Positions 2,329 through 57,780 of a stretch of DNA of 64,000 nucleotides are shown here, piece after piece. The notes below the pieces were generated by a model. It was not told the DNA's origin and ran no database searches. It saw nothing but the letters and a program-made list of their open reading frames with translations. Position 1 is the stretch's first letter; the number at the start of each line of letters is the position of its first letter. The DNA comes from Mayamaea pseudoterrestris (taxonomy: Eukaryota): assembly GCA_027923505.1 (NCBI GenBank), contig BROI01000001.1:124001-188000 (forward strand), given 5' to 3'. The position numbers were made by a program, and so were the translations under genes.

Positions 2329-3033
2329 TTATTCGCCGCCAAACATCCACACCAAAATGCCTCCAAACAAACGCAAAGGTGCCGCCGACTGCGTTGACCA
2401 TCCTCGTAGCAAGTTTGCTTGGCCTTCTGATGATAAGAGAGCTGATGTCGCCTTATTCCCACGCCGCTTGGTAGTAGCATCATCACTCTTACGCGCCACA
2501 CCCGTCGCCGATGTACAATTGACAGCCTTGATGGACTTCAATTCAAGCCATACCTTTCCAGCAACTCCTTCCGCCCAGATTGCCATAGTTCCCATGTTTT
2601 CGAGTGCATCATTGTCGGGGCAGTAGCGCGAGTCTTCCTGGCATGTATGAATCGGATCGCCAGTGGCGTCATCCCAAAAGTCGGTGAACGAGTCAAAGGG
2701 CAAGATCAAATCACCAAAATCACCCACTGGAACGTTGCATAGAGTCGTCTTGTAGCCATAGGCAAAGTGCTTTCCACCCGGCGCATGCGCATTGCCAAAA
2801 CTGAACCGAAATCCATTATATGCAGCCGTTTCATTGTTGGTTCGAAGCGTCAACTGAATCGCTTGACATGATGAAACGTCTGGAAATGGCTTGCTGAAAT
2901 CCTCAACGACGCGCGCTTGAATGAATCCAGGTGCTCGCAGGAACCATACGTGTTCCACGCTTCCCTCAAACACTGCCGTTCCCGACCACCTCCCACGGCC
3001 AAAGGATTTGCCGCCCATGACTGGGTCGTTCAC
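2329..3033 (-). pseudogene. Second CIA30-like domain copy, in frame with 3067..3864 but cut off by one TGA and a scrambled junction
   Basis: Near-identical to the upstream copy (NDPVMGGKS, RAPGFIQAR, GYKTTL). No ATG start. Ends in a hydrophobic tail (LRLFGGILVWMF). Confidence 0.55.
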
Positions 3034-3776
3034 TCTCGCGCAACTCGGGATGCGGATGCGATAAATTCAAAATGATGCATCGTCATTGTCATTGCTACCA
3101 TCCGAGTGTGAGTGTTCGTTGGAAGTCTTGCTCTTTTTCGATGTACAATTGACAGCCTTGATGGACTTCAACTCTAGCCATACCTTTCCACCAACTCCTT
3201 CCGCCCAGATTGCCATGGTTCCCATGTTTTCAAGTGTATCGTTGTCGGGACAGTAGCGCGAGTCTTCCTGACATGTATGAATCGGATCGCCTGTCGCGTC
3301 ATCCCAAAAATCAGTAAACGCATCAAACGGCAAGATCAAATCACCAAAGTCGTCCACTGGAACGTTGCATAGAGTCGTCTTGTAGCCATAGGCAAAGTGC
3401 TTGCCACCTGGCGCATGCGCATTGCCAAAACTGAACCGATAGCCATTGTATGGAGCCGTGGCATTGTTGGTTCGAAGCGTCAACTGAATCGCTTGACATG
3501 ATGAAACGTCTGGAAACGGCTCGCTGGAATCCTCCACGACGCGCGCCTGAATGAATCCAGGTGCTCGCAGAAACCATACGTTTTCCACGCTTCCCTCAAA
3601 CACTGCCGTTCCCGACAACTCTTTCACTTGAAAGGTGCCAGTGGATTTGCCGCCCATGACGGGGTCGTTCATTTCGCGCCACTCGTGATGCGGATGCGAA
3701 AAATCCTCCAGCGTAATGCTATCGTCATTGTCATTGCTACCCTCCGAGTGTGAGTGTTCGTTGGAAGTCTTGCTCT
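2509..3776. repeat. Direct tandem duplication of ~630-640 bp (two CIA30-domain units)
   Basis: ATGTACAATTGACAGCCTTGATGGACTTCAA occurs at 2511 and 3141. The linker CGTCATTGTCATTGCTACC occurs at 3081 and 3723. Confidence 0.95.
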
Positions 3777-3864
3777 TGTCATGTTTATGGGCGACAACTT
3801 GATCCTGGTGGATTGAGCAGAAGCACGTGACAATGCTGATGAAAACTGATGCGAAAACCTTCAT
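3067..3864 (-). CDS. Secreted CIA30 (NDUFAF1-like) domain protein
   Basis: ATG at 3864 gives the signal peptide MKVFASVFISIVTCFC. W..MNDPVMGGKS is the CIA30 family signature. Confidence 0.75.
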   Translation of the reverse strand: MKVFASVFISIVTCFCSIHQDQVVAHKHDKSKTSNEHSHSEGSNDNDDSITLEDFSHPHHEWREMNDPVMGGKSTGTFQVKELSGTAVFEGSVENVWFLRAPGFIQARVVEDSSEPFPDVSSCQAIQLTLRTNNATAPYNGYRFSFGNAHAPGGKHFAYGYKTTLCNVPVDDFGDLILPFDAFTDFWDDATGDPIHTCQEDSRYCPDNDTLENMGTMAIWAEGVGGKVWLELKSIKAVNCTSKKSKTSNEHSHSDGSNDNDDASF

Positions 3865-4087
3865 TGTAAATAAGTATATACAATTGTAACTGTGGACGCA
3901 CAAATGTAACTTCAAGCCTTGTTCGATTCTCTGCCGTTTGACTTTGGCTTGGGATCCCTTGAACACTTTGGATCTCGTCAAAATAATATGGATGGGCGAA
4001 GAAAATGATAGTTGTCGGAGCGGTTCTAAATGAGTCGTGCGTACGATTGCTAGGCTCTCACTCGTTCGTCACACTCTTTCTTCCACC

Positions 4088-8364: not shown

Positions 8365-9876
8365 ATGATGAATGTCATAAATGACTTGGCCCCTTCGCGC
8401 GACACGACCGCCACATTTTCTTTTTGGCGTGACCATGAGATTCGAACGACCATGACCGTCTCTGGGCAACGATGTAGATGCAGATCTTTGTTTCTACTGC
8501 ATGCAATATCACTGGTACTCATAGACAAGTCATTGCTGCGAATATCAGCCAATGAAGCCTTTTGTCACGCCGATGGAACTTGCGAAACAAATGGAGATTC
8601 GGATCCGTTATCCAGTCGTCTTGATCAAGCCATGGCAGCAAAGTCTACAGCCTACGGCCTCGAGCAATATATTACACACGACTTTCGAAGAGAGCAGCAG
8701 CTTCGACTCATGGAGCAAGTCGATCAGTACATGCGCAATATTGTTTTCACAGAACTCAAGTACATTCCAATCAAAGCTGACTGCTTGAATCGCCACGATT
8801 TATGTAGCTTTTGGAGCGCCATTGGCGAATGCAAAAGCAATGAAGCTTACATGCTGCTGCAATGCGCACCGGCCTGTCAAGCATGTCACTCGTTAATCTT
8901 TGAGGAACGATGTCCGTTTGATGAGAATGACTTGTTGAACGTTTGGCAGCCTGGTGACTTGGGATCGTTCTTTCGGCGCATCACGACGGACGAATCCATT
9001 CAGCAATCCTACAATCCGCAAATACTCAGTCAGCCGGAGCGAGGTGGTGTACATGGTGATAATCCATGGATTATCATACTCGATGACTTCCTCACCCAGG
9101 AAGAATGCGAAACACTCATTGAGCAAGGCGCCATTCAAGGCTACGAGCGATCGGAAGACGTTGGCCGCAAGAGGTTTGACGGAACGTACGACTCGATTCA
9201 AAGCGAGGGACGTACAAGTACGAACGCGTGGTGCTTGAACGACTGCTACGAGCACAATGTGACTCGAGCCGTGACGCAACGAATGGAGGAGCTTACGGGT
9301 GTGCCGGAATCACACAGCGAATATCTGCAGCTGCTCAAGTACGAGCCAGGTCAATTTTATGAAATGCATCATGACTATATTCCCCATCATGTTCAACGAG
9401 CGCAAGGACCGCGGATACTGGTGAGTAACGTGTATGCCGCGAAAATGGGTTGTTTGTGACACGCTTATTCAGTGTGACTTTGCACTGCAGCGATATCTGT
9501 TTCATTGTCCCACGATCATTGCTCGTACCTTAAACAATCTTTTTTCACAGACAATATTTTTGTATTTGAATGACGTGGAGGAAGGCGGAGGCACCCGCTT
9601 CACAGACTTGGACTTGACCATCATGCCCAAGCGTGGACGAGCCGTGATTTGGCCGAGCGTATTGGACCAAGCACCGACGCTCAAGGAACCAAGGACGCAT
9701 CATGAGGCATTACCAGTCACTAAGGGCGTCAAGTATGGCGCCAATGCATGGGTACGTGACGATATAACTCTCTGTAGCTACGACTCTTGTAGTGGCTCAG
9801 CTCATCCGTTGCTTTTTTGGCTTCCCAGATCCACTTGCGCGACTTTAAAAAGCCCTACATAGACAGTTGCGTATAA
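8365..9876 (+). CDS. P4H: ShK-domain prolyl 4-hydroxylase (3 exons; introns 9421-9550 and 9752-9828)
   Basis: ShK motif C..W..IGEC..N..YM...CAPAC..C. Catalytic motifs RTST, YEPGQFYEMHHD, TIFLYLNDVEEGGGT, HEALPV..GVKY..N.W. GT-AG introns join the exons in frame to IHLRDFKKPYIDSCV*. Start uncertain. Confidence 0.9.
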
Positions 9877-10127
9877 TTATGCAAATTGTTTTCGTTAGTT
9901 TAAACCTGTAAAAGTTCGTTGTGAATCAGGGTCGTCTATTTTGTACGGTACTGTCAGCCTTAAGCAAGCGAAATCGCTCCCATCGCCTCTGTTCAGCTTA
10001 CGCAGCTTTGAAAGTAAATCGCCACTCATCTTCCCTTTCCATTGCGTCAAGGACCATCAATCTGGTTCCTCCCCAGTGTTCAGCGATGTCGCGATTCGGC
10101 ACAGCTGCGAAAACTATCCACTATCCT

Positions 10128-10715
10128 TCACCTTCGCTTCCGCCTTGAACCAACTCCACGCGCACTAGAACCCGCACCAATGACTCCAACGCTGGCGTTC
10201 AACCGTGGCGCTAATCCTCCATGCTGCATGAAAAAGTCTCTCCACGTGTGCGCCGCGTCCGTGTTGCCAGTCAGCCACTCGCGAAAGGCCTCGCAGGTTT
10301 TGCACTCCTCCACGAGCTCGGCAGACAGTCCCAGCTGCTGCTCGCAGGCGATCCGAAAGGATTCTTCCTCCGACTGACTAATAATAATGTCATTATTGCT
10401 ACTACCGCTTCTACCAGTCAGTTCCTGCTGCAGTACTTCGTATGCGAGTGTGACTTTGATAAAGTCGGAATGCGCCGCTGCAACATCATTATCGTCATTA
10501 TCATTACTTGAAGATCCTCGGACAATGTCAGGATGGCATTCCTTGGCGCGTTTAAAGTAAGCGAATCGAATGTCCATCATGGTTAATTCTTGTGATGCAT
10601 GAGGAGGAAGTCCAAGGAGTGATCGCGCTGCTCGAGACGAGATGCATCGATGAATGATGCTCCTGACTCGACGATCCATTGGCAGCAGAAGCGAAACGGA
10701 ATGGATGAAGCGCAT
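10128..10715 (-). CDS. DnaJ (J-domain) protein, probably organellar
   Basis: LLGL...IRFAYFKRAKECHPD...FIKVTLAYEVL. Arg-rich N-terminus. Confidence 0.85.
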   Translation of the reverse strand: MRFIHSVSLLLPMDRRVRSIIHRCISSRAARSLLGLPPHASQELTMMDIRFAYFKRAKECHPDIVRGSSSNDNDDNDVAAAHSDFIKVTLAYEVLQQELTGRSGSSNNDIIISQSEEESFRIACEQQLGLSAELVEECKTCEAFREWLTGNTDAAHTWRDFFMQHGGLAPRLNASVGVIGAGSSARGVGSRRKRR

Positions 10716-11038
10716 GACTTGATCAATCTATATTATATTTTGGTCCCTTCTTACTCGAGTCGTCGGCTTGTCTTACTCATGAGATGACTACGGTAGCCTC
10801 CCAAGGTAGATGAAAAATGATCGCGTCATGGTGGAGTGTGGTCACGCATCGTCACACCAGCTGAGCGTCGCACCGCGAGCTGATCGATCGTTTTCAAAGC
10901 CGTGTAATAATCGGCGCGCCTTCGCGGCCGCTCGTTTGCGTCGCTCATTCATCATTCGTCTCCTCCAGATCGGCAGTTTCAGTTGTTCGCCTTGCGTGCG
11001 CCCGCTTCACTATCCTCCAACATTCTCCTTTAACTATA

Positions 11039-33935: not shown

Positions 33936-34353
33936 TGTGATTGTACCTCTGGTAAATGAAGGTACTACTTTATGTTTCATTTAATTTTTTATTAGGTTGT
34001 AAATATATCAATGTAATTCATTTTTGTGTTGCAGAATTGCCAAGGCTTGCAAAAATACATCGATGCGCATGCAAATTGGCGCAACTCCAATAGCTAACCT
34101 TCAGAATCAGTCAGGGATAAGGTTAGTTCATCACGCATCGCACCTCGCGACCATGGAAATTACAAGTTGGAGCGAACAAGCACTTTGAGTCGCTCGCTCC
34201 TGCAATTTTATGCGAGACTCGTTTTGTAAGAAGTTTTGCAATATATATCTTCACAGGAGATTTAGCTTGTTTCTGAGTAGCTCTACAGCTGCAGTTGCTG
34301 TTTATTAAAAGCGAGCGAACGAGAAACGGACGACTGGGATTCATTTAACAGGT

Positions 34354-37300
34354 ATGGAGCAGGAAAAGATGCTTGTCAATGCAGCGGACAAGAGCACGAC
34401 GGCGCCTTCTTCAAGCAATGATGCTCCAGTATCCTTTGTGAACAATGACGCGGCGGAAGAATCCGAGGAGGAGGAAGAATCGGAGGAGGACGACTCGAGC
34501 GACGACGAAGACGACGCCGATTCACTCACGGAGGACGAACAAGACGCTGCGGATCACGACTACCTTCAGTATCTGTCCACAGATCACTACGACGAAGACG
34601 CACTGCCCGAACATGCTTGTCGCTACTGCGGCATTCACGATCCATCCTGCGTCGCCAAGAGCGTGGACAGCAACAACAAGTGGTTCTGCAACGCGTCGGC
34701 GCGCACCAGCGGCTCCCACTTGATTCACCACTTGGTCAAGAGTCGATGCCACCAGGTGCAACTGCATCCCGATAGTCCATTGGGAGATGCTGTACTGGAG
34801 TGTTACAATTGTGCAACTAAAAATGTCTTTGTACTAGGCTTTGTTCCCGCTACTACGAACAGTGTGGTCGTGCTACTGTGCCGCGTCTGCGTGGAAACAG
34901 TGCCGGCGCTCAAGGACATGGACTGGGAGCTATCGCAGTGGTGCGCGCTCATTCAGGACCGCAAGTTTTTGCCGTGGCTCATCAAGGAACCTCACGAAAA
35001 GCTCATGCTCAAGGCGCGCGAAATTTCAGTGGCGCAAATGGGACGCATGGAGGAACTGTGGAAGCAAGATCCGGATGCAAAGTACGCGGACTTGAGTCGT
35101 CCGGAGCTTGTGGAGGAGGAGCAACTAACGCAGACACGGTTGCACTATGAGGATGGCTTTCACTACCAAAACGTCATTGCGCCATTGGTCAAGATTGAGG
35201 CTGACTATGACAAGGCCATGAAGGAAAGTCTTTCCGAGGAATCTGTATCGTTGCGCTGGGACAAGTCGCTGGCGGGAAAGCATGTCATTACATTTACCTT
35301 TCATCGGATTGAAGCTGAGCAAAGTCGCATTGTCGTTGGCGACGAATTGCGCGTCAAGCTTGGACCGGGCGCCGAGTTTATGCATGGCGGTCCATGGGAA
35401 GGCAGAGGTTATGTGAAAAGCATTTTTGACGGTGAGATTGAAATGGAACTTCGGGCTGGAGGTGGACGCGTACCAAACTGTGTCACAGACGACTTTGTTG
35501 TCGAGTATGTTTGGAAGAGTACGTCGTACGATCGCATGCAGAATGCCTTGAAAACCTTTGCGATTGATGATACTAGCGTGACTGGATACATTTATCACAA
35601 GTTGCTCGGACACGAGGTTGCTGATCAAGTCATTACCAATGCCAAGGTGCCGACAAAGGAGAAGGACTTTGTAGCGCCGGGCTTGCCGCCCTTGAACGAG
35701 TCGCAAATGGCGGCGGTGGCAATCGTTTTGCAGCGTCCATTTTCATTGATTCAAGGACCTCCAGGGACTGGCAAGACTGTTACTAGTGCAACGCTTGTCT
35801 ACCATCTGACTAAGCAAAACATGGGTCAAATCCTGGTCACTGCTCCTTCCAACGTTGCGGTTGACCAATTGACGGAAAAGATTGCAGCCACTGGACTGCG
35901 CGTGGTTCGCGTCGCGAGTAAGACGCGCGAAGCCACGACGAGCTCGGTTGATCATTTGTGTCTTCACATTATGGTGCCATTGGCTGCAGGCGACGAATTT
36001 AAGAAACTTCAGCGTTTGAAGGAAGAGATTGGTGAATTGACGGAACGAGACATGAAAAAGTATCGCATGCTCCAGAATCGCACGGAACGCGAGATTTTGC
36101 AGGCGGCCGATGTGATTTGCACCACTTGCGTTGGTGCAGGCGACCCGCGTTTGAAGAACTTTCGCTTCCGTCAAGTGTTGATTGATGAAGCGACACAGGC
36201 GATCGAGGCGGAGGCGCTTATTCCGATTGTTATGGGAGCCAAGCAGGTCATCTTCGTGGGCGACCATTGTCAGCTTGGACCAGTGGTGATGTGCAAGGCG
36301 GCGGACAAGGCTGGATTGACGCGATCGCTTTTCGAACGCTTGGTTATCGCGGGTAACCGTCCGATTCGACTCCAGGTGCAGTATCGCATGCACCCTGCCT
36401 TGTCGGAGTTTCCGTCCAACATGTTTTATGAAGGAAGTTTGCAGAATGGAGTCACCGAAGCTGATCGTCAGCTCATGGATCTTCCAGACTTTCATGGCAA
36501 GGAAGACTTTCCCTGGCCCAATCCCAGCAAGCCAATGTTTTTCTACTCAATTACCGGAATGGAGGAAATGTCGTCGTCTGGTGTCTCGTATTTGAATCGG
36601 ACAGAAGCGTCGCACGTGGAAAAGATTGTCACGCACTTGCTGCGCATGGGTTGCTCACCGGCGCAGATTGGGGTCATTACTCCGTACGATGGACAGAAGA
36701 AGTACGTTTCCGAATACATGCGTCGGGCCGGTGCCTTGTCGAGCAGTTTGTATGAAGCTGTCGAAGTTGCTTCCGTCGATGCTTTTCAAGGACGCGAAAA
36801 GGATTTTATCCTCGTGTCATGCGTCCGTTCCAGTGAGACGCAAGGAATTGGTTTTCTGTCGGACCCTCGCCGTTTAAATGTTGCCTTGACTCGCGCTCGT
36901 TTGGGTATCATTCTTCTTGGTAATCCTCGTGTCTTGAGCAAGAATGCTTTGTGGGCTGCGTTGCTCATTCACTTCAAAGAGAATGATGCCTTGGTAGAAG
37001 GTACACTCAACAATTTGCAGCCATGCTTCTTGACGATTACTCGCCCACGTCAGAACATGGTGGGTGATGCTCGCTACGCGTTTACGGCTCTTGCTCGCGG
37101 CGGATGGGACGGACGCTGGGACGACCGTCGCCCAGAGAATGATGCGCCAGGCTTTCGCATGCATGGAAATAGTCGTGGCCGTGACGTGCAGACGGATTCA
37201 CGCTTTGACTCGCGCTACGAGAATGCTGGAAATTTTCAAGATCAAATTCCCAATGGAATGCCGATTCCAAGCTTTGCTCCGCTGCCGAACTACTCTGGCG

Positions 37301-37476
37301 CCGATGACTTGAGCAGCGTCGGCGGTGAAAGTGAATATGGGTCTCAATTCGGTGGAAGTCGTGCTTCCTTTTACTCACAGCGCATTAAGGACGACCGCGG
37401 ACCGTCGCTTGGCTACTTTGTGAGTGCTGGATATGGTGCTGGTGGCAATGGGAGTGGCAAGAATGGACGACGTTGA
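34354..37476 (+). CDS. UPF1: Regulator of nonsense transcripts 1 (UPF1 RNA helicase)
   Basis: CH domain (HACRYCGIHDP, LECYNC) plus QGPPGTGKT, DEATQ, QYRMHP, VDAFQGREKD and RRLNVALTRA. Confidence 0.98.
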   Translation: MEQEKMLVNAADKSTTAPSSSNDAPVSFVNNDAAEESEEEEESEEDDSSDDEDDADSLTEDEQDAADHDYLQYLSTDHYDEDALPEHACRYCGIHDPSCVAKSVDSNNKWFCNASARTSGSHLIHHLVKSRCHQVQLHPDSPLGDAVLECYNCATKNVFVLGFVPATTNSVVVLLCRVCVETVPALKDMDWELSQWCALIQDRKFLPWLIKEPHEKLMLKAREISVAQMGRMEELWKQDPDAKYADLSRPELVEEEQLTQTRLHYEDGFHYQNVIAPLVKIEADYDKAMKESLSEESVSLRWDKSLAGKHVITFTFHRIEAEQSRIVVGDELRVKLGPGAEFMHGGPWEGRGYVKSIFDGEIEMELRAGGGRVPNCVTDDFVVEYVWKSTSYDRMQNALKTFAIDDTSVTGYIYHKLLGHEVADQVITNAKVPTKEKDFVAPGLPPLNESQMAAVAIVLQRPFSLIQGPPGTGKTVTSATLVYHLTKQNMGQILVTAPSNVAVDQLTEKIAATGLRVVRVASKTREATTSSVDHLCLHIMVPLAAGDEFKKLQRLKEEIGELTERDMKKYRMLQNRTEREILQAADVICTTCVGAGDPRLKNFRFRQVLIDEATQAIEAEALIPIVMGAKQVIFVGDHCQLGPVVMCKAADKAGLTRSLFERLVIAGNRPIRLQVQYRMHPALSEFPSNMFYEGSLQNGVTEADRQLMDLPDFHGKEDFPWPNPSKPMFFYSITGMEEMSSSGVSYLNRTEASHVEKIVTHLLRMGCSPAQIGVITPYDGQKKYVSEYMRRAGALSSSLYEAVEVASVDAFQGREKDFILVSCVRSSETQGIGFLSDPRRLNVALTRARLGIILLGNPRVLSKNALWAALLIHFKENDALVEGTLNNLQPCFLTITRPRQNMVGDARYAFTALARGGWDGRWDDRRPENDAPGFRMHGNSRGRDVQTDSRFDSRYENAGNFQDQIPNGMPIPSFAPLPNYSGADDLSSVGGESEYGSQFGGSRASFYSQRIKDDRGPSLGYFVSAGYGAGGNGSGKNGRR

Positions 37477-37853: not shown

Positions 37854-39194
37854 TTATAAAGAATTAGTGACAACAAGCTCACTTTCATGTCCAAACGTGT
37901 CATTGAAAGCTCCTTCCAGTTCCTCCGAATCCAAGGCGAGCTCTTCTTCGTCACCCAAAGCGTTCGAGTCCGACGGGTCCTCCTGCGAGGCAAAATCTTC
38001 CCACTCGCCTTCCTCATCGTAATTGGTGCTGTTAATGTTGTTGCTTAATGCAGCAAAATCATCTTCATCGGGTTGCTGCACCAGAGTGTCGTTCTTCATT
38101 TCGTTGTCACCTTGCCCCACTTGCGACGAACCATGCCAATCTTTGTCAGCAGCAACGTTAACAGCTCCACTAACACTTGTCCCGGCTTGTCTTATATGCG
38201 TAATGGGCCGCTCCAACTTTTCACCCAATCGCACCAAACTCCCCTGTTCGGTTGGCTTGAGAATCATGGGATTGGCCTCAAAGTTCAAGCTGTCAAAGTT
38301 GCCTTTCAGTACAGTCGCTGCCGTGATTGGCTTTTGCAAGTCGCCCTTGGTTTTCACGAGCTTGCCTTTTGGAGTTGGTTTCAACAAGGCTGGATTCACG
38401 TCAAAGTTGACGCCCATACCTTCCGGCTTGTAGCAGTGCGTCACGGGCTTGCTCAGCGAGGTGCCACGCTTGACGGCGTGGCCGAGCGGCGTGTTGCGTA
38501 AAACAAAGTGGGGATTGGCTTCAAAGTTGACATCGGCCAGTGGATCCTTTTGCACCATGGTGATGCGTTTGGCCAAGTCGTGGCCGCTACGAACGGCACC
38601 TCCCTGCTGCGTGGATTTGAGAATCATGGGAGTGGCTTCGGCGTTAAAGTCGTCCATGGTGCCGCGCAAATCTTTATCGGTTGCCTTGGTGATGGGCTTT
38701 TGCAAATCTCCCGTCGTCTTGGCCTGATGACCTGACCATGACTCCTTCAGCAATGGTTTCACGGCCCAATCGGGTTTCTCCCACTCAATCGCCTTTTTCT
38801 TCTTGTCATGTTCCGATCCACCGAGATGGACTGGAGAAGTTGAGGCATTCGTCGGTCGAAGTTTTCGTTCCTTGGTCGCCCATTCAGGCTGCTCCCAACC
38901 AATAGGTGTCTTGTGATCGGAGACGCTTCGACCGAAGGCGGTAGTCGGCGTTGCTTGAGTCATTGTAGGAGACGACGTTGTCGTATGGAACGTGCTTGTT
39001 TCGAAAACAGACGAAGACGTGCGGCGGGCGTCGTTTCTGATGGACGGAGGAGATGGCGAGACCAGATTCATGCTCGCAGTCGCTGCCGCAATATGTTCCA
39101 TGTCTTGGTCATTCAAAGCATCCAAATTGCTGCTCGACGACTCTTGCTCGTTGCAAATCGTGACTTCATGTTCTTGCGCAATCGTGGAGGACAT
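37854..39194 (-). CDS. Hypothetical protein with ~6 copies of an unnamed ~40 aa repeat (family member A)
   Basis: WEQPEW and WEKPDW, followed by repeats of NFEANP..LK.T..G..VK.G..L.KPIT. Confidence 0.8.
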   Translation of the reverse strand: MSSTIAQEHEVTICNEQESSSSNLDALNDQDMEHIAAATASMNLVSPSPPSIRNDARRTSSSVFETSTFHTTTSSPTMTQATPTTAFGRSVSDHKTPIGWEQPEWATKERKLRPTNASTSPVHLGGSEHDKKKKAIEWEKPDWAVKPLLKESWSGHQAKTTGDLQKPITKATDKDLRGTMDDFNAEATPMILKSTQQGGAVRSGHDLAKRITMVQKDPLADVNFEANPHFVLRNTPLGHAVKRGTSLSKPVTHCYKPEGMGVNFDVNPALLKPTPKGKLVKTKGDLQKPITAATVLKGNFDSLNFEANPMILKPTEQGSLVRLGEKLERPITHIRQAGTSVSGAVNVAADKDWHGSSQVGQGDNEMKNDTLVQQPDEDDFAALSNNINSTNYDEEGEWEDFASQEDPSDSNALGDEEELALDSEELEGAFNDTFGHESELVVTNSL

Positions 39195-53463: not shown

Positions 53464-55125
53464 CTAAATCTTGTCAGGCGTGGTCTTGATTCCGCCAATG
53501 TCCCTTTCAAGCTTTGCGCCACTCTTTAATGCCTCGCCCTTTTCAGTCTTCCGAAGCTTGGGTCCATTCGTTGCCCAAGATGGCTTTTCAAATTCATACT
53601 TTTTCATTTGCGTCGCCGCCGTCGTTGGGAGAGCCAATGTTGCGCCTTGCTTGACCGCTTTTCCCGTTTCCGTCGACCGCAACTTGGTAGGATCTGCCAC
53701 CTTATTTATTTGTTCCTCCTCTCGGTTTTGTGTGGCCATTGTAATTGGCTTGACAATATCCTTGCCGGAGCGTATCATGGAACCTTTTGTGCTTATTTTT
53801 AGATTTCGCGTCGTCAAAAACGGATTGCCCTTTTTGAGCTTGGCCAAGACTGCCTCCTGGTCAATGGATCCGTCAGCGTTAATGAGATGCGACTGGTTCT
53901 TGCCGACACCCTTAAGCGCTGGAAGATTGGTAATTGGAGACGCCAAGTTTTGCCCTTGGCGAAGCGCACTGCCCTTGTCCGTCTCCTTCAGCTTGGGCGC
54001 ACCGCCCGACTCTTGGTCAGCCGCCCATTCTGGCTTTTTCCAAGCATAGACGCGATGCTCTCCGTCAAATGTATCGACACGAACGTATGTCTTTGTGTAT
54101 GACTTTTCGCCCTTTTTCGCCTTGACCTTTTTGGCTTTTGGATTCTTTGGACTTTCGGGGCATGCTTTGAGAATAGACTTGACCGTACCTGCAGTAGAAG
54201 CGACAGATCGGCCACTCGGAGACGCTGGGGCAATGGGCATGGCAAAGCCTTGGATCGGAATGCGATCAACCATGTGAGGCATGGGCTCACTAATTGGCGT
54301 CGTCGGACCTTCTTCGTCGTCATCAATAGTTGGAAGTAAATTTGCACTCGAGGCTGCACCAGTTTGCTCAAAGCCATGTTCGGACGAAAGCAGCGAGAGT
54401 GATGTATCTGATGCTTCAAATTGTGCGGCATCATTCGACGCTGCAGCGGGAGAAACGGGACGAGGCACCGTTGTCTCGCCAGCAGGCTCATCAAGTACTA
54501 GCGGTTGCTCTGGTGGCAGTAGTTCCTCCTCCTCCTCATCGTCTACTTCCATGTCAAGCTCATCCGGATTAAACTTGATAGCAGCCATGCTTTCGTGAAA
54601 GCCTTCCGACACGACAGAGGGCTCCGCAGAAGCATCGTCCGTATCATCCAACGCTTGCAGATTTGGTGCCGCCATGCTATGAATAGGAAGTTGCAAGACT
54701 CGTCCAGTGGCGCCTTGTTCGGCGTCCGAGTCGTAGCTTTCGTCGTCGTACTCATCGTCGTCGACGCTAATATCATCTTCCGTTTCAAAGACGTAAAATA
54801 CTTCACCGTCGACAATTTCCAAGTAAAAGTCTGCATCCCCGTCATCTTCCACAATTTCAATTTCATACGAATCGTCATCTTCATCGTCCGGATACAGCAG
54901 GGCGAAGCGATGTTCAATTTCCTGTACCAAGATTTCCTCCTGCCATTTGATCTTTGTCTTTTTGGCCGACGGCAATATTTCAATGACTGCTTCTGCATCA
55001 AATGGGTCAGGCATTAGAAATGGCTTTGGTTTGGCGAGTGAAACTTCGTAGCGAGGAAATCGAAAGGACACGTCATCGTCGTCGCTATCGGAAGTTGGTG
55101 CTGCTTGCTTTTGTACGTCAATCAT
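53464..55125 (-). CDS. Acidic hypothetical protein with 4 C-terminal copies of the unnamed repeat (family member B)
   Basis: WKKPEW..LKETDKG..LASPIT; LKISTKG..IVKPIT; LRSTETG..; FEKPSW..LRKTEKG..IGGIK. Confidence 0.85.
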   Translation of the reverse strand: MIDVQKQAAPTSDSDDDDVSFRFPRYEVSLAKPKPFLMPDPFDAEAVIEILPSAKKTKIKWQEEILVQEIEHRFALLYPDDEDDDSYEIEIVEDDGDADFYLEIVDGEVFYVFETEDDISVDDDEYDDESYDSDAEQGATGRVLQLPIHSMAAPNLQALDDTDDASAEPSVVSEGFHESMAAIKFNPDELDMEVDDEEEEELLPPEQPLVLDEPAGETTVPRPVSPAAASNDAAQFEASDTSLSLLSSEHGFEQTGAASSANLLPTIDDDEEGPTTPISEPMPHMVDRIPIQGFAMPIAPASPSGRSVASTAGTVKSILKACPESPKNPKAKKVKAKKGEKSYTKTYVRVDTFDGEHRVYAWKKPEWAADQESGGAPKLKETDKGSALRQGQNLASPITNLPALKGVGKNQSHLINADGSIDQEAVLAKLKKGNPFLTTRNLKISTKGSMIRSGKDIVKPITMATQNREEEQINKVADPTKLRSTETGKAVKQGATLALPTTAATQMKKYEFEKPSWATNGPKLRKTEKGEALKSGAKLERDIGGIKTTPDKI

Positions 55126-55768
55126 GGTAACGGCGAATGAGTGTAGCGACTTGGGACGTCTGCGGCAAACCGTTAGCTTGCTTTTTCAGTTCGCAATCAA
55201 TGGATCGGCGCGTATTCGAAAAGCAAAACCTTTCAAATTGTTGACGTATCAGAGAAGGTAATGAAAAACTTGCTGGTTGGATCAAGAAGATTCGACAAGC
55301 TCAATTTGTGCGGTGTTCTCAGTTCCACGGCTAATTCCGCGAGGCTGCTTTACAGATATATGGTCAAGTTGGAAAGTAGACGCTACACTAGACGGTGCTT
55401 GCCATGACACAGCTATCGGCGCTATGATCAAACATATAACTCATCTCATGGTGTTGAACGAACGTCAATCCGTTTCCAGCGTCACGTCGAAAAAGTCATC
55501 CATGCGTGACCACTAATGACTCATAATGACTTTGGGATACCAATCTTGCGTTGGCAAGATCCAAAATGACTCCTCTGAGGTCATTGCAGGAAAAAAACGA
55601 CTAATTGGGTTCATCTAAAATCGCAAAGGAGTTGATGAAGCAAGATTCAGTCGCGGTCATCATGGTCTTCATGAAGATGTGTCGACCCATCACAAGTCGA
55701 GTCGCTTGCTTGCTTGCTCCTCTATCCCAAACTCCATTGACCGTACCCATCAAATATAACATAAAAAC

Positions 55769-56546
55769 ATGCCGGACGAAGAAGATTTGCAGTGGAAGAA
55801 GCCAGATTGGGTGAGTATCATATGGATAAAAAAGACGAGGAGATGCATGAGTGGATCATGATGTTCTTCACTTCGATGGACTGGTGTTTCACACTCGCGC
55901 GCAAGCATCTCACACATCTTGCGTTTGTATGTTCACGTGATTCACAGGCCACCAGCGGACCGAAACTAAAGTCTACGGGCAAGAATCTAAAGGGAGGCGA
56001 AAACCTAGCCAAGCCCATTACCAACTTGCCGCACATGAAGGGAGAGGATCAAACCAACTTTGAAGCTCCAAAGTGGACGGCAGACGTTCAACCGTCGGAC
56101 ATTCCGTCCAATTTGGCCAAGGAGATTACGAGTGCAACTTCTAATGCTTCTCTAGCGGTGAGTGAATGAGGGAGAGGATGTGGGAGAGAATGTTAACGTT
56201 GTGTGTCCGTTCATTTCGTGAACGTTGAGTTATGGATTGGTAAACCGTAATGAGGCGCATAACACGAATGATGTTAAAAGTTGCAATCATTTATTTGCAC
56301 GTGCACTTGCGGAGACGACGATTAAGCGAACTGAAAAGGAAGATGACAGTGGTCGTGTTGTTGCGTATGGTTCATCCACCAACTCACTCACTCCCATTTA
56401 CTCGTCAATTACTCTCTCTGATTCAGTTCGAAAAACCAGATTGGACCAAGGAACGACCCGTCAAGCAATCCGAGAAGGGCGCCGCACTCAAGGAAGGAAA
56501 GGAGATTGCCCGACCCATTGGAGGCATCAAGCCGGTGGAGGATTAA
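55769..56546 (+). CDS. 123-aa repeat-only protein (family member C); exons 55769-55810, 55948-56157, 56427-56546
   Basis: Two phase-0 GTGAGT..CAG introns give MPDEEDLQWKKPDW-ATSGPKLKSTG...LAKPITNLP...-FEKPDW...ARPIGGIKPVED*. Confidence 0.85.
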
Positions 56547-56811: not shown

Positions 56812-57780
56812 TCAATTCGCCATATCGTAAAGTTTCAAGGCAAACTGCGTCAGAATAGAAAGCATGAGCATGACTGCCAGCAGCGTCGGCCCCGTGGTAT
56901 CTTCGTAAGGTCCCGGATGCCTCGTTCGAATCATCATGGCCCGTCGCTTGTACTGGTACATGCTATACAATATGAAGCAAATGGCAACGGGAAGCAAAAT
57001 GACGCCATATAGTTGCGACAGTGGATTGTTTGCCTGCGCAAAGGCCAAAATGGCAATGCTTCCACCGGCCAAAATGACGCTGAGATGCATCCATGCCAGA
57101 AAGGTTCGCTCGTTGGCAAAGAATACTGTGAAATGGTATAGATATAGCAATGTAGAGAAACATTTCGTAAGCAAGCAGTCGTCATCGCACAGGCCATCGA
57201 CTCTATCTACGGTATCGCGTCTTTCACTCCACTCCACAATCCTCCTTACCTTTTGGTTCCACTTTAATGGGAGCCTTTCGTGTCTTGACAAGTGTTCCAA
57301 TGTCTCCATATTTTCGGTCACTCGTCAAGGCGTTACTATTTCGCTTGTTGCTTCCTCCTCCAAACAGTTTGGTCCAAATGCCTGGCTGCTGCTTACTACC
57401 ACTACCATCAGTTCCATTGACGACGCGATTCGTGGGAACCTTGCGAATCGCTTGCGCCGGGCTTTTCTATGAAGCAATAGAAAGAAGAATGCAGTTAGTC
57501 AATGTGTGATTCTATCGAGCGATTCTCCGTCCTTCCGTGTTCTCTCACGCCCACGAGTCTTGATCAGAATCGACCCAGTTCCATTAAAATCACCATAGAC
57601 TTCTCAACATACCAACGGCTCCAAGACGCGCGGCGCAAACTCCTCCTCGGAGGCACCTTCCGGCAAGCCTTCCACCTCTCGCTCGTTGGTGGTGCTTGTG
57701 GCGCGGTTCAAAAAGTACCACTGCTTGCTGCCATTGTCGTTGCTCGTCGGCGATAGAAGACGACTCGACTCGTTTGGCAT
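56812..57780 (-). CDS. VTC1: VTC1-like vacuolar transporter chaperone subunit (DUF202); introns 57467-57612 and 57126-57249
   Basis: The spliced product contains PIKVEPKVFFANERTFLAW, three TM helices and GPYEDTTGP. Confidence 0.85.

Follow-up and report, generated by a model that had tools for sequence, protein, structure and literature searches.

A probable conserved divergent gene pair in the diatom Mayamaea pseudoterrestris encodes proteins sharing an apparently undescribed tandem repeat

Here we show that two genes transcribed head to head in Mayamaea pseudoterrestris, a raphid pennate diatom, share a tandemly repeated unit of about 33 amino acids (consensus WEKPDWAKPKKLKSTEKGEAVKKGGDLAKPITH) that appears to be undescribed. 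The genes lie in a stretch of 64,000 nucleotides (assembly GCA_027923505.1, contig BROI01000001.1, positions 124,001 to 188,000 of the forward strand), which is referred to as a whole as the window, and encode proteins of 553 amino acids (P0001, the large gene, minus strand) and 123 amino acids (P0051, the small gene, plus strand). In all probability, the locus represents a conserved divergent pair of paralogues from a small protein family which, among named species, is known only from diatoms. We further propose, with a rough probability of 0.3, that the units are short docking motifs whose tandem copies bind along a partner that is itself repeating or polymeric, with actin the likeliest, by analogy with known tandem-repeat proteins.

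A sequence-only reading of this DNA, made without database searches, had noted an unnamed repeat shared by the two genes and a third family member at 37854-39194. Both are borne out by BLASTP and by a profile hidden Markov model (HMM) of the repeat. Alignment of P0051 with P0001 gives E values of 7e-14 and 1e-13, alignment with the third member, P0002, an E value of 1e-5, and judged by these comparisons the likeness of the small protein to both relatives is far above chance. The motif pairs quoted earlier for the small gene and its neighbour are all present, and the unit of the large gene most similar to the last unit of the small gene is its unit 4 (BLASTP alignment). When all six frames of the 64-kb window were scanned with the repeat HMM, 13 of the 13 listed domains fell inside the three genes; an iterated local profile counts four units in P0001, six in P0002, and two full units in the small protein. 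The charge layout of the longer proteins is uneven, P0001 having an acidic N-terminal half (isoelectric point, pI, 4.05) with its basic repeat region (pI 9.9) towards the C-terminus, and P0002 having basic repeats (pI 9.7) followed by an acidic C-terminal tail (pI 4.05). The features of these two genes, and of the spacer between the divergent start codons, are as follows in window coordinates (i-E, independent E value).

53464-55125, minus strand: large gene, a single exon encoding 553 amino acids (P0001), stop codon 53464-53466; the same 553-residue protein is present in the public collection
54766-55068, minus strand: conserved N-terminal module of the large-gene family, residues ~20-120, including ...SYEIEIVEDDGDADFYLEIVDGEVFYVFETEDDIS; many invariant columns in an alignment of 46 orthologues
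54043-54177, minus strand: SILKACPESP motif, lysine cluster KAKKVKAKKGEK and predicted strand KTYVRVDTFDGEHRVY, just ahead of unit 1; consensus of the orthologue alignment, AlphaFold2 strand 343-349
53926-54042, minus strand: large gene unit 1 (WKKPEW...LKETDKGSALRQGQNLASPITN); HMM i-E 3.9e-11 in the six-frame window scan, 4.7e-13 in the protein scan
53737-53814, minus strand: large gene unit 2, headless (...NLKISTKGSMIRSGKDIVKPITM); HMM i-E 1.3e-6
53617-53697, minus strand: large gene unit 3, headless (...KLRSTETGKAVKQGATLALPTTA); HMM i-E 5.1e-6
53494-53592, minus strand: large gene unit 4 (FEKPSW...LRKTEKGEALKSGAKLERDIG); HMM i-E 4.3e-11
55126-55768, no strand: spacer of 643 bp between the divergent start codons at 55125 (minus) and 55769 (plus)
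37857-39194, minus strand: third member, 446 amino acids (P0002), stop codon 37854-37856; repeat HMM
38196-38897, minus strand: the six units of P0002, two with a WExPxW head and four with an NFEANP-type head; profile

The large gene has 47 relatives at E<=0.01, among which the sole named species is Phaeodactylum tricornutum and one other entry is an MMETSP transcript. The closest relative of P0001 is P0004 (646 amino acids, 88% identity over the repeat region), which runs about 100 residues beyond the ...RDIGGIK unit and ends in an extra W-E-K-P-E-W unit; P0001 stops right after its ...RDIGGIK unit, and no W-E-K-P-E-W unit lies downstream (window 53464-53600). From its sequence we infer that the lysine cluster KAKKVKAKKGEK ahead of unit 1 may resemble a nuclear localisation signal. 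Directly upstream of the third member lies a complete open reading frame (ORF) for a UPF1-type RNA helicase (34309-37476, plus strand), comprising the UPF1 zinc-binding domain, the 1B domain, and AAA_11/AAA_12.

The small three-exon gene is real, and three independent lines of evidence converge on it: an identical NCBI protein, joints in public contigs, and intronless orthologues elsewhere. Its structure is as follows.

55769-56546, plus strand: small gene as a whole, three exons and two introns, with a spliced product of 123 amino acids (P0051)
55769-55810, plus strand: exon 1 (MPDEEDLQWKKPDW); joint 55810|55948 in X3 and X4 contigs
55811-55947, plus strand: intron 1, 137 nt, GT..AG; skipped by one contig each of X3 and X4, absent from the orthologues of L002, L003 and L005
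55948-56157, plus strand: exon 2, 70 amino acids, the remainder of unit 1 and a shortened middle unit; unit profile and variants
56158-56426, plus strand: intron 2, 269 nt, GT..AG; skipped by one X4 contig, retained by the X3 contig, absent from the orthologues
56427-56546, plus strand: exon 3, unit 3 (FEKPDW...IARPIGGIKPVED) and the stop codon; HMM domain i-E 5.3e-11

An entry in NCBI nr from Mayamaea pseudoterrestris is identical to P0051 in every letter and is annotated as a hypothetical protein. The earlier reading was accurate in its three-exon structure and its 123-residue product, and mistaken in calling the gene hidden. Four public sequencing runs (X1-X4) cover the stretch in the form of assembled contigs, the kind of library not being on record; uncovered intergenic stretches in the X3 and X4 contigs were not counted as evidence. 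Contigs of X1 and X2 cover the introns of the small gene, a contig of X3 joins 55810 to 55948 and keeps intron 2, and a contig of X4 carries both joints, 55810/55948 and 56157/56427. Both GT..AG introns are accordingly skipped in public contigs, and the joints confirm the exon boundaries either way, being splicing if the runs are RNA and precise intron loss if they are DNA of relatives. The difference between X3 (intron 1 out, intron 2 kept) and X4 (both out) may reflect partial splicing or a difference between strains. Over the large gene the contigs are colinear, with no joints.

Intronless orthologues of the small gene are found as ORFs of 123-129 amino acids in three metagenome loci (L002, L003, and L005) and as P0083 (132 amino acids); they are 53-66% identical to the small protein, and their alignment runs without gaps over both junctions. 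The IARPIGGIKPV tail is near-invariant across five small-gene orthologues. As had been proposed, the introns sit at repeat heads, intron 1 immediately following WKKPDW and intron 2 immediately preceding FEKPDW. The profile places full units at residues 9-40 and 85-116, and reduces the middle unit to a head and a tail without the L[KR]xT-G part, likewise in the orthologues; the description of the small gene as almost entirely three repeat units thus stands for two of them and has to be qualified for the shortened middle one. The small protein is near neutral (pI 5.9). About 270 bp past the stop codon of the small gene, and convergent to it, lies an ORF for a DUF202 membrane protein (56815-57324, minus strand).

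The head-to-head arrangement recurs in other diatom loci. The start codons are 643 bp apart, in agreement with the roughly 640 bp noted earlier, and the spacer is presumed to contain a shared bidirectional promoter together with both 5' untranslated regions; the spliced contigs of the small gene begin within it, at 55634 and 55656. A metagenome scan with the alignment of large-gene orthologues returned five loci (L001-L005). In all three testable loci (L002, L003, and L005), the large-gene orthologue has a small three-unit gene of about 123-129 amino acids upstream of it in divergent orientation; in L001 and L004 the upstream DNA does not reach far enough to show pairing, and they were left out of this count. 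The corresponding spacers measure 476 bp in L002, 1002 bp in L003, and 578 bp in L005. P0029 of Phaeodactylum is nearly the same protein as that encoded by the large gene of L002, and Phaeodactylum tricornutum carries the same gene pair at this locus. In L005 (413-10986) and L002 (3127-10072) the pair lies within a tight cluster of four to six unit-bearing genes in about 11 kb, and in L005 the gene directly downstream of the large gene is P0002-like and is the best match to P0002 among the other loci. Searched with tblastn against the window, the cluster genes find matches only in the repeats of the three genes already described. Since the pairing is kept in other diatom loci, the head-to-head pair, and more loosely the cluster, is ancient within diatoms.

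Two further observations concern these clusters. The L005 gene at 9634-10986 ends in a module resembling the small gene (...PITNLPH...RPIGGIKPIED), and a one-unit gene on the far side of the small gene is kept in both L002 and L005. In Pfam, no families were found for six further clustered genes of L002 and L005, and P0052 and P0056 gave nothing over the cut-off.

Judged from the sequences, the conserved arrangement would be compatible with shared regulation. It resembles conserved bidirectional-promoter gene pairs in that the genes are divergent, with starts under 1 kb apart in Mayamaea, and in that other species keep the arrangement; it differs from them in that the partners here are paralogues with the same repeat and in that no shared promoter element was found. 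No 8-mer is common to all four spacers, and the 27 7-mers present in at least three spacers, against 16.0 +/- 4.2 in mononucleotide shuffles, are too weak an excess to call. A search of the literature on bidirectional promoters returned nothing relevant.

The repeat itself is sharply defined. We gathered 761 unit instances (734 of them distinct) in 182 family proteins, with one to 13 units per protein at a modal spacing of 35-45 residues. Each unit may begin with an optional head, W-E-K-P-x-W or N-F-E-A-N-P, followed about five residues on by a core of the pattern L-[KR]-x-[TS]-x-x-G-x-x-hydrophobic-[KR]-x-G-x-[DN]-L-x-x-P-I-T; slightly more than half of the units carry the W-E-K-P-x-W head. 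Conservation of the core positions is 95% for L, 86% for K/R, 94% for T/S, 83% for G, and 87% for the hydrophobic position, followed by 82% for K/R, 76% for G, 89% for L/I/V, 79% for P, 82% for I/V, and 77% for T. A search with the unit profile retrieves 210 of 1,835,955,588 representative proteins at E<=1e-3 and 125 at E<=1e-10. The only named species with the family are Phaeodactylum tricornutum and Mayamaea, in libraries that carry almost no names.

The family is absent from Pfam and has no solved relative, and by these sequence searches the repeat appears undescribed. No Pfam family matches the three window proteins or the relatives P0083, P0110, and P0108, with P0001, P0002, and the exons of the small gene searched at E<=1 and P0051 and these relatives at E<=10, which agrees with the earlier view that the repeat is unnamed. 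Among 132 new representatives, 123 lack any Pfam family. In four others (P0148, P0162, P0169, and P0171), a MYND zinc finger at the N-terminus is followed by an acidic linker and two or three W-x-K-P-x-W units; P0182 shows a partial and doubtful Med26 match (23.9 bits, the cut-off being 20.6, and no stretch significant on its own), and the remaining three listings, apart from the gelsolin fusion described below, are under the curated cut-offs. A PDB sequence search with a profile of the 46 orthologues gave no matches at E<=1, and the ESM Atlas no usable match for P0002 residues 90-350 or for P0051. In the searchable literature, neither the head-motif strings (WEKPSW, WEKPEW, WEKPDW, WKKPDW, NFEANP, and WEKPxW) nor the gene names MPSEU_000005100, MPSEU_000005000, and MPSEU_000005200 occur, to which we add that expression tables outside the text may exist.

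Three long proteins with looser matches, P0142, P0154, and P0182, contain many headless units of the form ...LKKSxxGDxIKxGGDVxK, with the looser pattern ...[KE]-P-x-[YF]...L-K-[KS]-[ST]-x-x-G-D-x-I-K-x-G-G-D-V..., interleaved with a second repeat, EEKPDYTAVQLKAS...; a wider superfamily is possible. Given these headless related units, the core may predate the W-E-K-P-x-W head.

The proteins of the pair are predicted to be mostly disordered, as had been suggested earlier. AlphaFold2 gives a mean predicted local distance difference test (pLDDT) score of 52.8 for the large protein (46-sequence alignment) and of 60.2 for the small protein (seven-sequence alignment), the latter with two short helices. 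The model of the large protein contains a small sheet formed from residues 36-50, 100-116, and 343-349, of which the strands 36-50 and 100-116 reach pLDDT 70-82. In its units the only predicted element, at low confidence, is a short helix between two glycines (383-389, 446-452, 486-492, and 528-534), and no strands are predicted, again at low confidence, in any unit of either protein. A fold search of the large-protein model against 48,161 PDB representatives found nothing meaningful (best Z 2.5), and a complex prediction combining large-protein residues 20-125 and 335-553 with the small protein scored 0.00, which weighs neither way on binding. The family proteins examined are hydrophilic, with a grand average of hydropathy (GRAVY) of -0.6 to -1.0 and about 65-70% of residues polar or Gly/Pro; a hydrophobic N-terminus is present in four of the 165 proteins that start with M, and a membrane-like segment in one of 182. 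These properties suggest that the proteins are soluble and intracellular.

Purifying selection acts on both genes. Comparison of the contigs yielded 66 variants, and the figures given here refer to the 40 that were listed. Synonymous changes account for 25 of the 30 listed in the large gene and, within these, for all 13 in the repeat region (codons 347-471); the five replacements are confined to the acidic middle, which is poorly conserved (codons 224-283). All four variants listed for exon 2 of the small gene are synonymous as well. The X4 run shows a 9-nt in-frame deletion at 54468, which also falls in the acidic middle, where the large gene is poorly conserved.

What the units do is approached here by analogy. 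Strict position-specific conservation within a disordered chain suggests that each unit would be a short docking motif, and the tandem copies with their period of 35-45 residues, similar to that of nebulin and cortactin repeats, suggest that these copies would line up along a repeating or polymeric partner. Actin is our first choice, owing to a gelsolin fusion, the L-[KR]-x-T core, and the similarity in size to three-repeat thymosins. The three-unit protein of 123 amino acids would then be a small multivalent actin binder analogous to the Ciboulot-type three-repeat beta-thymosins, the larger paralogues would attach the same repeats to an acidic domain, and the shared promoter would keep the products of the small and large genes in balance. 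The fusion in question is P0131, a fragment of 219 residues. Pfam recognises in it the last gelsolin repeat (PF00626, E 1.8e-9, 37.7 bits with the cut-off at 21) at residues 1-39, and some 60 residues beyond this matched part come three units. These units occupy the position of the villin headpiece behind a gelsolin repeat, although the headpiece, with its roughly 35 core residues, is compactly folded and the diatom repeats are predicted to be disordered, and the comparison concerns one fragment only. The units of P0131 are of a PITFTPFKNxDHxNxVAN subtype, which also exists as stand-alone proteins of about 120-140 amino acids (P0110, P0106, and P0152).

Several points weigh against actin as the partner. 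The gelsolin fusion is one N-terminally truncated fragment among the 132 scanned representatives and could possibly come from a merged gene model; among relatives found with query residues 85-219, only P0108 is longer than P0131, and it has no gelsolin repeat. Four representatives carry the MYND zinc finger instead, which indicates no particular partner. The Pfam models for WH2, Thymosin, and the tau repeat find no match in the window proteins or the 132 representatives, a PDB search with the unit profile yields no peptide that binds actin or tubulin, and the small protein, at pI 5.9, is unlike typical basic polymer-side binders. An acidic domain combined with basic repeats and a lysine cluster would fit microtubule-associated or nuclear proteins equally well. 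The actin link remains only a lead, an analogy plus one gelsolin-repeat fragment that the follow-up search did not corroborate.

A nuclear and a microtubule reading account about as well as actin does for the uneven charge, the lysine cluster, and the fusions to MYND. It is possible, though rather unlikely, that these are nuclear, chromatin- or RNA-associated disordered proteins, whose basic units would touch nucleic acid or nucleosomes and whose acidic domains would act like histone-chaperone tracts. The conserved lysine cluster (KKxKKxKxxKKEK) beside SP sites in the large-gene family, the acidic half (pI 4.05) joined to a basic repeat region (pI 9.9), the lack of any secretion or membrane signal found, and the four fusions to MYND, a domain common in nuclear co-repressor partners, all point this way. 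MYND is found in cytoplasmic proteins too, however, and no known DNA- or RNA-binding motif or Pfam match turned up; the small protein is not basic, and the conserved tryptophans and P-I-T tail are untypical of nucleic-acid binders. We regard as unlikely a kinship in mode of action with the microtubule-associated proteins tau and MAP2, in which an acidic projection domain would be combined with basic tandem repeats along the tubulin lattice. An acidic N-terminus followed by four to six basic units with conserved K, G, and P, predicted to be disordered as in tau and about 30-40 residues long as in tau, MAP2, and MAP4, is consistent with it, and the LKKSxxGDxIKxGGDVxK units of P0142, P0154, and P0182 loosely recall the tau motif, K-x-G-S...P-G-G-G. 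The Pfam tau/MAP repeat (PF00418) is nevertheless unmatched, no tau chain in the PDB is found with the unit profile at E<=10, the period is 35-45 residues rather than 31-32, the unit ends in P-I-T and has no PGGG, and no fusion to a tubulin-related domain is seen. A non-specific hydrophilic protectant or condensate scaffold without a defined partner, akin to late embryogenesis abundant (LEA) proteins or hydrophilins, seems improbable: very hydrophilic, repetitive, disordered chains (GRAVY -0.6 to -1.0) and a short small protein would suit it, but most of the 734 distinct units retain each of W, P, W, L, T, G, G, P, I, and T, a conservation too strict for such a role, the listed repeat-region variants are all synonymous, and the gelsolin and MYND fusions argue for specific binding.

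That the units are true, divergent WH2/beta-thymosin domains, by homology and not by analogy, we consider very improbable. The resemblance lies in the L-[KR]-x-[TS] stretch, which is the best-conserved part of the unit and corresponds to the LKK[TV] motif with a variable third position (S, P, K, or A), in the single gelsolin fusion, and in size, three-repeat thymosins being similar in length to the three-unit protein of 123 amino acids. Multi-repeat beta-thymosin/WH2 proteins such as Ciboulot and tetrathymosin are likewise small and disordered, with about three tandem units of 30-40 residues centred on L-K-x-T. Yet neither Pfam WH2 (PF02205) nor Thymosin (PF01290) is matched even at E<=10, nor in any of the 132 representatives at E<=1e-3, and no WH2 or thymosin chain in the PDB is found with the unit profile at E<=10. 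Moreover, in WH2 the LKK[TV] motif must be immediately preceded by an amphipathic helix of some three turns, whereas in the diatom units only five to six residues, mainly A/T, K/N, P, and K (P/G/K-rich), separate the last head W from the L, and the only predicted helix comes after the motif, a point that rests mainly on sequence, given the low AlphaFold2 confidence. The known proteins in turn lack the W-E-K-P-x-W head, the G...G, and the P-I-T tail. Membership in WH2/thymosin thus fails on the profile test and the missing N-terminal helix, and with it the kinship that the sequence-only reading had drawn from the LKxT motifs, while its unnamed family and predicted disorder hold. Among the matches listed in a literature search on thymosin, WH2, and actin binding, there was no diatom work.

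Least credible of all is a joint fold of three units into a beta-trefoil. This idea arises from 16 PDB sequences matched by the unit profile, all of them designed Symfoil-type beta-trefoils or fragments (3q7y, 3o49, 4f34, and others; best E 1.1e-5), which share with the units a short P-x-L-L-K-S-T-E-x-G-x-x-L-[RK] stretch, the matches running through P-x-L-L-K-S-T-E-T-G-x-x-L-R, and from the presence of three units in the 123-residue small protein. Each match covers only 12-17 residues, however, its significance being inflated by three identical copies in the designs; the units have no predicted strands (AlphaFold2, low confidence), their composition is too polar for a core, and the number of units per family member, 1 to 13, does not come in multiples of three. 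The trefoil was dropped after the AlphaFold2 models, and the Symfoil match is judged a chance resemblance of motifs.

Elsewhere in the window, two adjoining ORFs (2332-4068, minus strand) each match the N-terminal half of the CIA30 domain, and may be a tandem duplicate or a single intron-split gene.

Diatom genomes are rich in lineage-specific genes of unknown function, and the present family stands out by its sharply defined and conserved 33-residue unit, its absence from Pfam, its clustered genes, and its conserved divergent pair. Extending the docking reading, it is conceivable, if rather doubtful, that diatoms evolved an actin-binding tandem repeat of their own, unrelated in sequence to WH2, thymosin, nebulin, and calponin repeats. 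The small protein would then be the counterpart of the multi-repeat thymosins, the large paralogue and clustered relatives would be scaffolds, and the module would, in one lineage or more, stand behind a gelsolin core in place of the villin headpiece. If this were true, the conserved pair would couple a regulator and a scaffold of the diatom actin cytoskeleton in balanced dosage. Should the unit bind the cytoskeleton at all, it would represent an independent invention of a tandem polymer-binding motif, and would provide a handle on the regulation of diatom actin or microtubules, which underlies valve shaping and gliding. Otherwise, it would still qualify cleanly as a candidate for a domain entry of its own, and would offer tagging or knock-out experiments in Phaeodactylum tricornutum a well-defined target.

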